Positions 55,752 to 61,949 of a DNA stretch of 64,000 nucleotides are shown piece by piece. Numbering within the stretch: the first letter of the stretch is position 1; every line of letters starts with the position of its first letter. Below the pieces are notes generated by a model that ran no database searches, was not told the origin of the DNA, and was given only the letters and a program-made list of their open reading frames with translations. A program made the translations under genes and the position numbers. This DNA is from Mustelus asterias (lineage: Eukaryota), in contig NC_135801.1 of the NCBI RefSeq assembly GCF_964213995.1, positions 115,072,001 to 115,136,000 of the forward strand, read 5' to 3'.

Positions 55752-56342
55752 CGTCGTGGGAAATTTACCACCGGAGTCAGACTTGGAGGTTTCAACAATA
55801 CAGTTTTATTTCGGACACGAAGCTTCGGGGAGAAAGCACTGGTACTCCGCAGTACTTGGCAGCTACCTTCTCAACTACACAATGGCAGTTGATCATTTTT
55901 ATACCTTTTAGACAATAGGCAGTATGGACATTAGCCGTTTAACACATTGTTATAAGTTGAGTAGACAGATTACGGACATCGGTAGTTAACACATTGTTAC
56001 AAGCAGACAGGTACAGACATGGGCAGTTAACATATCATTGTTCATAGAATGGATACATTTCCTCTATCAATGACTGGTTTTAACCTATACATTCAGTGGC
56101 TGATGTTGTTGCATTTATGTATTTATGTTCCCATCTGTGGCTGACCTTATTATCAGACTTATTGTTCTGGGTCTGCCCTTATCTTAAAGTGCCTCAAGCT
56201 CTGACTAGCTTCCTGCAGCATTTCGGTTCCTGCATGTTTTAACTTTAAGTAACTGTCTGTGCCTGTTAATGTCCCTTCCCAGGTAACCATTTTGTGTGCC
56301 AGGCAACCATTTTGTGTCCATCACTTTAATTCCCCCACAACA
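55752..56342 (-). repeat. ERV 3' LTR (591 bp)
   Basis: Direct repeat of 61348-61949. Terminal CA mutated to CG on the minus strand. Minus-strand TATAAAA and AATAAA present. Confidence 0.95.
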
Positions 56343-56354
56343 CTCCCCCTTTTT
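56343..56354 (-). other. Polypurine tract
   Basis: Minus strand AAAAAGGGGGAG immediately before the 3' LTR TGTTGTGGGGG. Confidence 0.9.
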
Positions 56355-56399
56355 GGTCAGGATTATGGGTTAATAATCCCCAGACCAACAGCTGCATCT

Positions 56400-57881
56400 T
56401 CACATGTAGAGGTCTATCTTCTTCTTTCCTTCTTTGTATCTTTCGGCATCTTCAGGGGTTCCCATCATGTATTCTTCCTCGATGGTGACACTGGCTCCTG
56501 GCACAATTCGTGTCACCATTGCTTTACAACAGACATTAAGGCATCCAACAATTAGGCAACAGACAATTACAATTGAAATGAGTATGATCAGTCCATGCAG
56601 TAAATAGGAGCCCCAGGATCCCCCCACTAGCCATTCCAGCCAGCTACTTCCTTTCTTGGGTCCCTGTCTGAAGTTATCAAGTTGTTCTCTGATGTTATTA
56701 ATGACTTGGGTAATGTTATAGGATTCGTCTGTGACATGGGTTATGCATTTGTTTCCTATGATTGTACATACTCCCCCTTGTTGTGCTAACTGGTAGTCCA
56801 CTGCATATCGTGTCTGCTATGCATATAATCTCAATTCAGCCATTTCTTGGTTGACAGCCTCCAGTGCTTTTGGAGTGCTGTTTCCCAGGACTGTTAGTCC
56901 ACAAACAATATGATTCCTATTTTTTGCACTAATTACTCCTGCTGCCCCCTGCTCCTCCTGCTGCCCCCCTCCCCCCAGAGATAGTTCCAGGGAACCCCTA
57001 TCCCAGTGATGATCCCATTGTGCCCGGGGTTTCCCAATCAGCGCAGAATTCTTTGCTGATAGCCCGGGTTACTATCTTTCTCCAGATATGCCCCTTCTGA
57101 GGGCATGGAACAGTGAGTGGTCCTATTGTTCCTACTGCAAAAAGGATCGGGAGGGTTGGTGTTTCTGTCGTGCAAGTACCATTGAAGAGGAATACAAATC
57201 CCTTCTTAGCCCAGTAACATTCAGTGTCCCGATTATTAGTTTGTTTATACCACCAATTGCTCGGTTTACTTGACTCCCCGTTTGATCCCACCACCTGGTA
57301 AGTATCAAATGGGTATGTCCATTCGGCTGAGCTGACACGAGTCCCATTACACTGTCCACAAATGACCTGCCTCCCCGTGGTTACATTCAGGCATTTCTGT
57401 TCATCACAGGTGCAAGTAAACTGACCCTTATTAACCCGACAATGCTGACGGACACACTGCGTCTGTATGCAGGAATCATTCTTGGGGACCAAGGCATATG
57501 CACATCCCCATCCCTGCCCCGTAAAACAAAGCGGATAGCTTGCATTATCCAAGCAAGCTCTTCCTCCCACCTGTTGGAGCCCCCTGCACACAGGATCTGT
57601 GGGATTTACAAGTTCCACACATCTTCCCTGTATACCTCTTTTATATTTGCCAATTTGTCCTTTACAGGGTGCGTCTGAGGTATCTACTGTATATAAGTCA
57701 TGAGGGGTCCACCCAGGGGTGGCCACAAATAGGGCTTCTACCGATTAGGCTAACGGGTAACATACAGTTCGATTCCTGTGTAAGTGTATATGAGCTTGTA
57801 AAATAGGTTATCCTCCAGCCCAGTCAAATTTACAGTCGCAACAATGCAAAGTAATACAGTTATATACGCGATTTCATACAT
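56400..57881 (-). pseudogene. env: Retroviral env (SU-TM), disrupted by a frameshift and stop codons
   Basis: Signal-like MYEIAYITVLLCIVATVNLTG at 57881. Cys-rich SU (ORF 56998-57726). Basic site RKIVTR/AIS. Heptad ALEAVNQEMAELRLYA*QTRYAVDYQLAQQGGVCTIIGNKC. Membrane anchor LLHGLIILISIVIVCCLIVG. Stops near 57752, 56998 and 56818. Confidence 0.9.
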
Positions 57882-59540
57882 ATCCGCAATGAGCAAGTAT
57901 CAATCCTAATACTGTAAGTTATACAATTTTCAAAAGTCATACTGTCAACCCGAACGCATCAGTTACTCTTGCTTGCAGTCTTCACCTGTTTTGGGGACTT
58001 GAAAAGTTACAGATTCAGACATAAGAAACGGCAAGTCACATTAACCCTTAGAATACTGAACACTGAAGTCAATTCACTTACACGTCAGTAGTGTAAAATA
58101 TTCAATTACATATCCCCCCTCCATAGAAAGCTTAGTGTGAATCAAATAACACTTTGCACTGGCTTTTTGTCTGCAGTTGGACATCCATTCATTTGTATAT
58201 AATCCCATCAAAAGACATCGCTTTCCCCATTAAAATCACATGCCATACAGCTCCAATCTTTATATGATGTACTCTTACATTATATCTAATTTGATGATTT
58301 GTTGCGTGCAAGCGCCGCATTACAGTACTTCACAAAATGCCACTACCCAACCTACAAAGAACTGCATTCAAATGCTGAGCACCAACATTTAGCAGCGTTG
58401 TGCAAGTTCTTACAAACTATGGCAAAGAATGGTTAAATGCTTGGGATAAGTAGCCTTTTCATGGAGGAAAACAGGAAGCTCCTACAGAATTATGTTTTTA
58501 TCAATACACAATATATAATATATAAATATATTATGTAAAATTGGTTAAGGCTTTTCAGGATTTGATTTTATTCTCGGGTCTATATGGCAGTGCGATACTG
58601 TATAAAAAAAATAATCAAACGGCAGTTGTATCATACCACTTTACACATCATAACCGTGATATCCAAACCCTTTTAATTGAAGTTGTTTCTATTTTTTAAC
58701 TGAGTTAAGTTTTGAAGTGTTTTTATATTTGGCAAACCTTGAACAATAGATGGCACATGAAATTCCGACATAATTTTAACCAGTTACAGAATACTAAACT
58801 ATCAGACGTTCGTAAATCACAATATTCTGTGGACCTTAACACTGCATTCTAACTGGGCAATTTGCATTGGTGAGACAATATATTTACCTCATTCTTTTGT
58901 TCCCACTTTTCTACTTTTCCACAAAATTACTTATTTTCTTCTCTTAACTTCTCAACTAACTCTCTCATAATTTCTACTTCAAGACAAAGGAAAGAGCACA
59001 TGGTTCCCTACAAGGTTTAAATCTTTTCTTAAATTTCAATTTACTTTCCAATTTTTATTTAAACTCTGTATCAAACCCACTGTTGTAAAATCACAATTAG
59101 GGGAAGAACATTAAAACATTAAAGCAAACAACAACAAAAACATCCACGCAACCACTTTGTTAAACACACACAGACACACATGGAAGCTTCCAACATTCAT
59201 TCCACAGCACTTCCTCTTTCATTCAAACTCAACAACTTAAACTGGGATGAAAATAAAACACTTAAAGGGAATATAGAACGTTGATTAACACAGTTGCTTT
59301 TATTCTTCTTTCTTCCAAACTGTAATTAAACTCAAAACAGAAGTAAATTCAAGAAATTTTATCACTTTAATCTTTAACAGTTTTAACACCTCCCCAGCCC
59401 CCCGAAGTTAAACTAAGGTGCAAAGCACTGTATCCACTGCCTGCAACAAACACTCCACAAGAACAAACAGGCTTCAACAACTCCTGCTCCCCTACATTCG
59501 ACAAGCAACCAGACCACACAAACACACTGAAATACAAAAA

Positions 59541-60601: not shown

Positions 60602-61326
60602 TTCGCAGACTTCACTACCCCCGGTCACTGTTGCCGCCTTGGCAACATGTTTTAGGCACCGTACAGCCACGATTACTCCCTAGTAAAGTGTGCTCTCTAC
60701 CGTAGGGACTTAACTACCCCCGGCCACTATTACTACTCTAGCACCGTGTTTCACTACCATCTCAGGGTTTCAATTTATACTCACGGCTTCCACTATTACC
60801 ACCTCAGCAATGTGCTTCTCCACCAGAGTCCGGCTGTAGGTCAGAGTTGATCAGCTCCTTTTCCGCACCGCTTTACAACATTGACAGTCCAGTACCCAAC
60901 TATACAAACTTTCATGCAAACAGGTGGCAACTTTGTGTTTGTTCGCCACTACAGAGTTTGATGTTAACTGACCTTTGCCACTTGTGCTTCACAATCCTAA
61001 GTGCCCTTGGTGCCTCTACGCCCACTTCAGGTTCCTGACCTTCGCGTGGGGGATTTCCCCTCTTAACAACTGATCTAAGGCTGCGCATTTGAGACAGGCA
61101 CTACCTTGTCCTCTAGTCGGTCAGCACAAGTAACAGTTACTTATCACTATCAGCAGTTAGTACTTATCACTATACCATATACAATCAATACTTATTACTA
61201 TAAATACCCCTTAATTTTAACCCCTTTTAAACTGTATTCTTGACCTCATCTGACTCCCACAGATTCAGTGATCTCTACCCCGGCTTTCCGATTGTGGCCA
61301 ATCGATCAAAACTTACCAGCAATGAG

Positions 61327-61345
61327 ATCCTTGCCGACTACGCCA
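61327..61345 (-). other. Primer-binding site complementary to tRNA-Ser 3' end
   Basis: Minus strand TGGCGTAGTCGGCAAGGAT, 2 nt after the 5' LTR. Vertebrate tRNA-Ser(AGA/TGA) ends ...ATCCTGCCGACTACGCCA; there is one extra base here. Confidence 0.88.
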
Positions 61346-61347
61346 AT

Positions 61348-61949
61348 TGTCGTGGGAAATTTACCACCGGAGTCAGACTTGGAGATTTCAACAATACAGT
61401 TTTATTTCGGACACAAAGCTTTGGGAGAAAGCACTGGTACTCCACAGTACTTGGCAGCTACCTTCTCAATTACACAATGGCAGTTGATCATTTTTATACC
61501 TTTTAGACAATAGGCAGTACGGACACTAGCTGTTTAACACATCGTTATAAGTTGAGTAGACAGATTACAGACATCGGTAGTTGACACATCGTTACAAGCA
61601 GACAGGTACAGACATGGGCAGTTAACATATCATTGTTCATAGAATGGATACATTTCCTCTATCAATGACTGGTTTCGATCTATACAGTCAGTGGCTGATG
61701 TTGTTGCATTTATGTATTTACGTTCCCATCTGTGGCTGACCTTATTATCAGACTTATTGTTCTGGGTCTGCCCTTATCTTAAAGTGCCTCAAGCTCTGAC
61801 TAGCTTCCTGCAGCATTTCGGTTCCTGCATGTTTTAACTTTAAGTAACTGTCTGTGCTAAAAGCCAGTGCCTGTTAATGTCCTTCCCAGGTAACCATTTT
61901 GTGTGCCAGGCAACCATTTTGTGTCCATCACTTTAATTCCCCCACAACA
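61348..61949 (-). repeat. ERV 5' LTR (602 bp)
   Basis: Minus strand TGTTGTGGGGGAATT...TTTCCCACGACA, with TATAAAA at about 61492-61498 and AATAAA at about 61401-61406. Confidence 0.95.

Follow-up and report, generated by a model that had tools for sequence, protein, structure and literature searches.

The window analyzed here, a 64-kb stretch of the Mustelus asterias genome (64,000 nucleotides; assembly GCF_964213995.1, contig NC_135801.1, positions 115,072,001 to 115,136,000), contains a minus-strand provirus at 55752–61949 for which a pair of retroviral long terminal repeats (LTRs), a target-site duplication (TSD), a primer-binding site (PBS), and a polypurine tract (PPT) were all found. Between the remnants of gag and env lies a non-coding spacer that appears to have replaced the pol region. 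The parts are given below in the 5′ to 3′ order of the provirus.

61950–61954, no strand: right copy of the TSD, CTAAC
61348–61949, minus: 5′ LTR, 602 bp, TG..CA, with AATAAA at LTR position 544
61327–61345, minus: PBS, equal to the PBS of the elephant-shark element CmiERV scaffold 2 plus one extra base
61308–61319, minus: splice-donor-like motif in the leader, a pattern match only
60602–61326, minus: leader; imperfect short direct repeats lie near 60608–60825
59541–60601, minus: gag remnant limited to the matrix-like and capsid part, its start codon placed from the N-termini of relatives
57882–59544, no strand: non-coding AT-rich spacer, 1663 bp, where nucleocapsid, protease, reverse transcriptase (RT), RNase H, as well as integrase are expected; 3′ junction approximate
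56400–57881, minus: env remnant of full length, running from the signal peptide to the tail, with a gamma-type transmembrane part
56343–56354, minus: PPT, abutting the 3′ LTR
55752–56342, minus: 3′ LTR, 591 bp, with a change in its outer terminal base
55747–55751, no strand: left copy of the TSD, CTAAC

Alignment of the two LTRs gives 571 matches, 16 transitions (11 of them in a CpG context), two transversions, and three indels (1, 13, and 1 bp), with a Kimura two-parameter (K2P) divergence of 0.031. A preliminary description of this DNA had counted about 18 substitutions, mostly transitions, and three indels, which is exact, and the 5-bp TSD it reported is present on both sides. Its statement that all cis elements are intact holds as far as the presence of TSD, LTRs, PBS, and PPT goes, but a change at the outermost base of the 3′ LTR means that one end no longer reads TG..CA, and the PBS, which begins two bases past the 5′ LTR, is one base longer than its elephant-shark counterpart. 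The PBS (61345–61327) is presumably of the tRNA-Ser type, the label it was first given.

A search with the capsid frame returned two matches among 1422 candidates (78% and 70% identity), and a search with the frame of the env surface part returned three among 219 (81%, 54%, and 50%, the 50% match being a whale shark protein). A profile search gave 534 hits, including a horn shark Gag-Pol, and the RT part of this protein found 67 Pol proteins; eight of the 67 Pol clusters were opened. The closest relative (Gag P0001/P0003, Pol P0228, Env P0005) is 78–81% identical in Gag and 77–83% identical in Env over the aligned parts, and P0228 is a 1057-residue protein with protease, RT, RNase H, and integrase domains; the relatives carry a retroviral protease, RT, tether, RNase H, and integrase. 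For P0001, P0005, and P0228 alike, the record lists a JGI contig with a length of 7623 bp, while for P0003 and the Pol P0229, a member of P0228's cluster, the listed contig comes from ENA and is 4520 bp long. Since the Gag, Pol, and Env records share one contig size, they point to a single relative that very probably bears pol and appears to be a complete gag-pol-env virus; unlike the provirus, it has two CCHC zinc knuckles, long open frames, and a Pol. The cluster of P0228 also includes a Mustelus asterias protein (XP_078069418), and the proteins of this apparently complete relative stand unnamed in public collections, in metagenome-type records. The P0003 capsid aligns to Gag_p30 models with a TM score of 0.64 (on the collection's own predicted model). 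A predicted Gag structure, with a predicted local distance difference test score of 38, was too poor and was not used. Two further records, P0002 and P0006, have long open frames on a contig of 8182 bp; no Pol of theirs is among the eight of 67 clusters opened, which is no evidence of absence.

The spacer has an A+T content of 65% and 33–40 stops in each minus-strand frame, and Pfam gave no hits in any of its six frames at E ≤ 10, in agreement with its earlier characterization (57882–59540) as AT-rich, poor in open reading frames (ORFs), and without a pol motif. No colinear pol homology was found with Pfam, with a Pol profile, or with the closest relative's Pol. Specifically, 60 Pol-bearing queries reached a best E-value of 0.40, on the wrong strand, and a profile of 15 Pol sequences scored below zero in every frame reported. 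With frameshifts allowed, P0228 scored 34 against 36.2 ± 3.8 for shuffled sequence (29 of 40 shuffles as high), and P0231 likewise scored 34 (31 of 40). As a control on the method, all six distant Gags (roughly 20–34% identity) scored 96–371 on the gag region, where shuffle maxima were 41–51. Of 270 collected proteins, compared over their first 700 residues, none exceeded the shuffled maximum (55 on the minus strand, 53 on the plus strand, 57 shuffled). A 15-residue PAM30 match to P0228/P0229 at 58977–58939, on the right strand and with E 0.02–0.08 over the 64-kb window, was rejected as chance; it is absent under BLOSUM62 and BLOSUM45 and has no extension. Because the closest relative's Pol leaves no trace in the spacer even when frameshifts are allowed, pol is, to judge from these comparisons, replaced rather than eroded, which retains the first half of the preliminary description's "replaced or eroded" and discards the second. 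A simple deletion cannot add 1.66 kb, which argues for a swap rather than a plain loss: at least 3.4 kb of coding sequence, from nucleocapsid to the end of pol, appears exchanged for 1.66 kb of other DNA.

No donor of the spacer was matched in the window, in Pfam, in Rfam at the gathering score, or among the 270 collected proteins. Its ends show no flanking duplication and no inverted ends, the longest end-to-end match being 8 bp and not flanking the spacer. As a weak indicator, G exceeds C on the sense strand of the spacer (0.22 over 0.13), as it does in the leader (0.29 over 0.16) and in gag (0.28 over 0.19), while in four host intervals G and C lie within 0.03 of each other.

The exchange extends upstream of pol. 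Identity between the gag frame and P0003 holds up to the final residues of the window's frame and is followed by the stop at 59543, while all four of the closest full-length Gags run on for 91–97 residues (91 residues past the window's stop) with two CCHC knuckles. A search of the spacer for a nucleocapsid remnant gave a score of 36, matched or exceeded by 13 of 100 shuffles. Since Gag identity ends at the stop and the zinc knuckles are absent, the left break of the putative swapped segment is within gag, and the nucleocapsid is lost. Therefore, the provirus did not keep both structural genes as had been described; its gag ends where the two zinc knuckles of its relatives begin. On the other side, env is retained from its first codon onward. 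A more distant Gag relative (P0008, 58% identity) has a record that ends 11 residues past the capsid and contains no zinc knuckles. This record was considered as an instance of the same break and rejected, given its 58% identity and different tail.

The gag frame contains a frameshift near 60350 and a stop at 60308, and the env frame contains frameshifts near 57797 and 56940–56980 and stops at 57747, 57000, and 56819. The two genes thus show four stops and three frameshifts over 2536 bp, where the LTR clock predicts 2.2 stops and up to 6.5 indels. Since the observed lesions fit this expectation, gag and env could both still have been open frames when the provirus integrated, a matter of compatibility and not proof of selection. 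The K2P divergence corresponds to about 71 million years at the shark rate assumed by Han (2015), or about 29 million years when CpG changes are removed, and to 16 million years at an arbitrary rate of 1e-9 per year. At the epaulette shark mutation rate of 7e-10 per generation (PMC10587355), the age is about 22 million generations, with a range of 11–112 million. These estimates are rough, but at shark rates the provirus is tens of millions of years old and its LTR divergence of 3.1% does not make it "young," as it was first called.

The lineage was assessed through an RT tree of 46 rows (47 submitted, one dropped for short alignment), drawn from the 67 hits and three cluster members. The shark group (five rows, support 98/95) falls outside a group of 20 rows that has Gag_p30-bearing members (100/99), this larger group being labeled class I from Pfam domains and hosts and not from named references; the tree holds no named rows of snakehead retrovirus (SnRV), ERV-S, ERV-L, or ERV4. 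In addition to the RT position outside the presumed class I (gamma/epsilon) group, the TSD measures 5 bp, compared with the 4 bp typical of class I. Across a file of three CmiERVs, the 10-base PBS motif has one occurrence, which belongs to the scaffold 2 record; there the PBS equals that of the provirus less one base and lies 2–3 bases past the LTR (supplement of Han, 2015). This element, CmiERV lineage I scaffold 2 of the elephant shark, resembles the provirus further in its chondrichthyan host and its LTR divergence (0.033 vs. 0.031), but differs in having pol and in grouping with SnRV (Han, 2015; PMC4422223); the likeness concerns the PBS and LTRs. According to one survey, ERV4 has a 5-bp TSD and no Gag zinc fingers, and zinc fingers are noted in some SnRV- and Ovex1-related elements (Chong et al., 2014; PMC4299795), while SnRV is described with one zinc finger (PMC1224870). 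ERV4 membership was accordingly rejected: the 5-bp TSD agrees, but all four of the closest full-length Gags have two CCHC knuckles, where ERV4 has none. Thus, of the class III, SnRV-related ("ERV4") placement put forward in the preliminary description, the position outside the gamma/epsilon group and the PBS shared with an SnRV-related elephant-shark element survive, and ERV4 does not. An SnRV-like affiliation is plausible but unproven, the shared PBS being a marker and not a definition.

Exchange of a central segment with retention of the gag and env (or pol) flanks is common to the endogenous retroviruses (ERVs) D-type ERVK of cattle, ETn of the mouse, and recKoRV of the koala, as described by Tang et al. 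(2024; PMC10924933). The D-type of bovine ERVK[2-1-LTR] resembles the provirus in its central swap, in keeping its LTRs and PBS along with portions of gag and env, and in having no intact ORFs. Its central segment is 6.2 kb in the competent form and 2.7 kb in the defective form, which totals about 6.8 kb compared with 6.2 kb for the provirus. The cattle element is betaretroviral, primed by tRNA-Lys, still active, and shown as a subclade of 85% of elements (Tang et al., 2024), whereas the shark provirus belongs to a putative non-class-I lineage, is old, is represented by one locus, has a full-length env, and is known from sequence alone. In recKoRV, the viral ends are also kept around a middle derived from unrelated sequence, with intact TSDs; that element is a gammaretrovirus less than 50,000 years old, with PhER as the donor and only the gag leader and env end kept (Loeber et al., 2018; PMC6112702), while the shark provirus retains matrix-capsid and the whole env and no donor was matched. 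Mouse ETn/MusD likewise shows a central swap, and ETn is complemented in trans, but it keeps parts of gag and pol and not env (Tang et al., 2024). In the shark provirus, the middle cannot be aligned to the competent form, as compared at the protein level only, and the cis signals and gag/env flanks are kept. By analogy, it is probably the shark counterpart of the known central-swap ERVs, an architecture already known in a host and lineage that would be new. In mostly open-access literature, no report of a central-swap ERV in a cartilaginous fish was found; Repbase or Dfam may already list the family.

It is proposed, with a probability of about 0.62, that the middle of the provirus was swapped during reverse transcription and that the swapped form then integrated with the proteins of a helper. 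First, a shark retrovirus outside class I would have exchanged its segment from nucleocapsid to pol for unrelated non-coding DNA, most likely, if precedent is a guide, by a template switch onto a co-packaged RNA. The swapped form would have retained the LTRs, PBS, leader, and PPT, with no enzymes and no RNA-binding Gag. Packaging of a retrovirus requires nucleocapsid, and copying requires Pol. A form without enzymes and without an RNA-binding Gag would thus have needed the Gag and Pol of a helper, which, again by precedent, may have packaged and copied it and then inserted it at a site 12 kb from a Pdx gene, after which the provirus would have decayed neutrally over tens of millions of years.

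Several points weigh against this proposal. At about 80% identity, the relative counts as a cousin and not as the helper, and the linkage of its genes comes from equal contig sizes. The donor of the spacer was not matched, the A+T and CpG content of the spacer (CpG observed/expected 0.45) lies inside the range of host intervals (0.23–0.65), and the age of the locus permits a local insertion plus deletion. Furthermore, scans of the viral and metagenome contig collections yielded no related locus, and no further copy sharing these junctions turned up; a pattern of LTR end plus PBS retrieved one viral and 111 metagenome loci, none of which (0 of 112) matches the provirus beyond the pattern. One of the loci with this primer-site pattern (L016:970-5538) is an unrelated, distant LTR retroelement with an RT about 30% identical to P0228. 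Among 24 sequencing runs listed, 20 share part of the stretch, 17 of them at 0.27–0.37 (eight studies) and none above half. Shares of 0.27–0.37 exceed the 19% LTR portion and indicate that other data sets contain near-identical parts, though such shares do not tell which parts are present, the spacer included or not. None of the listed runs that share part of the stretch is an RNA data set.

The strongest competitor, although on balance unlikely, is that a complete provirus integrated and was later rearranged at this one locus, with insertion of host or transposon DNA and deletion of nucleocapsid and pol. The insertion is old on each of the above estimates (71 million years, 16 million years, or 11–112 million generations), the window is rich in remnants of long interspersed nuclear elements (LINEs) and of Penelope-type elements, the A+T and CpG levels of the spacer resemble those of the host, pol is present in the closest known relative, and no second copy was found in the contig collections scanned. 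However, such a history requires two events or one complex event, which must erase pol without leaving a detectable piece and yet halt just before the start of env, and the spacer neither ends in a flanking duplication or inverted ends nor matches other repeats of the window. It is highly improbable that the spacer is pol eroded past recognition in a long-lived non-autonomous lineage with gag and env under selection. Though the spacer occupies pol's expected place and contains the single 15-residue PAM30 match on the right strand, this match is lost under the BLOSUM matrices, whole-Pol scores equal those of shuffles, and the Pol profile is below zero. Moreover, gag and env have retained about 80% identity to the relative, Gags at only 20–34% identity are readily detected, and the spacer is half as long as the segment it replaced. 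An assembly chimera of a collapsed repeat hardly merits belief either, since the LTRs differ by 18 substitutions and three indels and yet are bounded by one exact TSD, with all parts in order and orientation.

If the central swap took place before integration, the provirus might also belong to a helper-dependent shark subfamily with many copies, in which matrix-capsid and the whole env were open at integration and nucleocapsid and pol were lost, a suggestion that is tentative and more doubtful than the swap itself. Under such a subfamily, the central-swap pattern of a "parasite of a parasite" would reach past the beta- and gammaretroviruses of mammals and include a cartilaginous-fish retrovirus outside class I, and an RNA-blind Gag together with an intact Env could have served as interfering or receptor-blocking proteins. 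Should other loci share the swap, the process by which an ERV family is overtaken and driven extinct by defective copies, known in cattle, koala, and mouse, would also have operated in sharks, in a deep-branching lineage. In the same case, shark ERV counts would be too low, since Pol-keyed screens such as that of Han (2015) miss pol-less elements. Were the swap confined to this one locus, the provirus would be no more than an ordinary, decayed one.

Two observations concern the Env relatives. Residues 307–439 of P0005, in the transmembrane part of Env, match filovirus GP2 structures with E of about 1e-11 and syncytins with E of 1e-5 or weaker. The whale shark env relative (P0007, 463 residues, 50% identical to the surface part in the window) clusters at 90% with P0159, a protein of 703 residues annotated as erythropoietin receptor isoform X1, which may be a gene model including env or a real fusion.

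In the neighborhood of the provirus, a Pdx-type ParaHox gene is represented by two plus-strand frames, at 39479–39922 and 43075–43488. Its homeobox exon lies 12.3 kb from the provirus on the opposite strand, and the best solved-structure match of the homeodomain is PDX1, which bears out the earlier report of a ParaHox gene nearby; beyond this proximity, no role of the Pdx gene in the biology of the provirus was found. The right flank of the provirus is a LINE remnant (61963–62528), whose start lies about 10 bases away and which is 74% identical over 571 bases to a second one at 51436–51966 (both on the plus strand). Penelope-like remnants are located at 12004–13535 and 36141–36880 (plus strand), marked by a GIY-YIG match and by near-identical C-terminal translations in tandem at 12004–12600 and 12570–13535. 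Finally, 54566–54757 (plus strand) gives a match of 52 bits to U2 small nuclear RNA, with a 21-base piece of the U2 5′ part occurring twice, 107 bp apart; this may be no U2 gene but a retroelement that derives from U2 or targets it.

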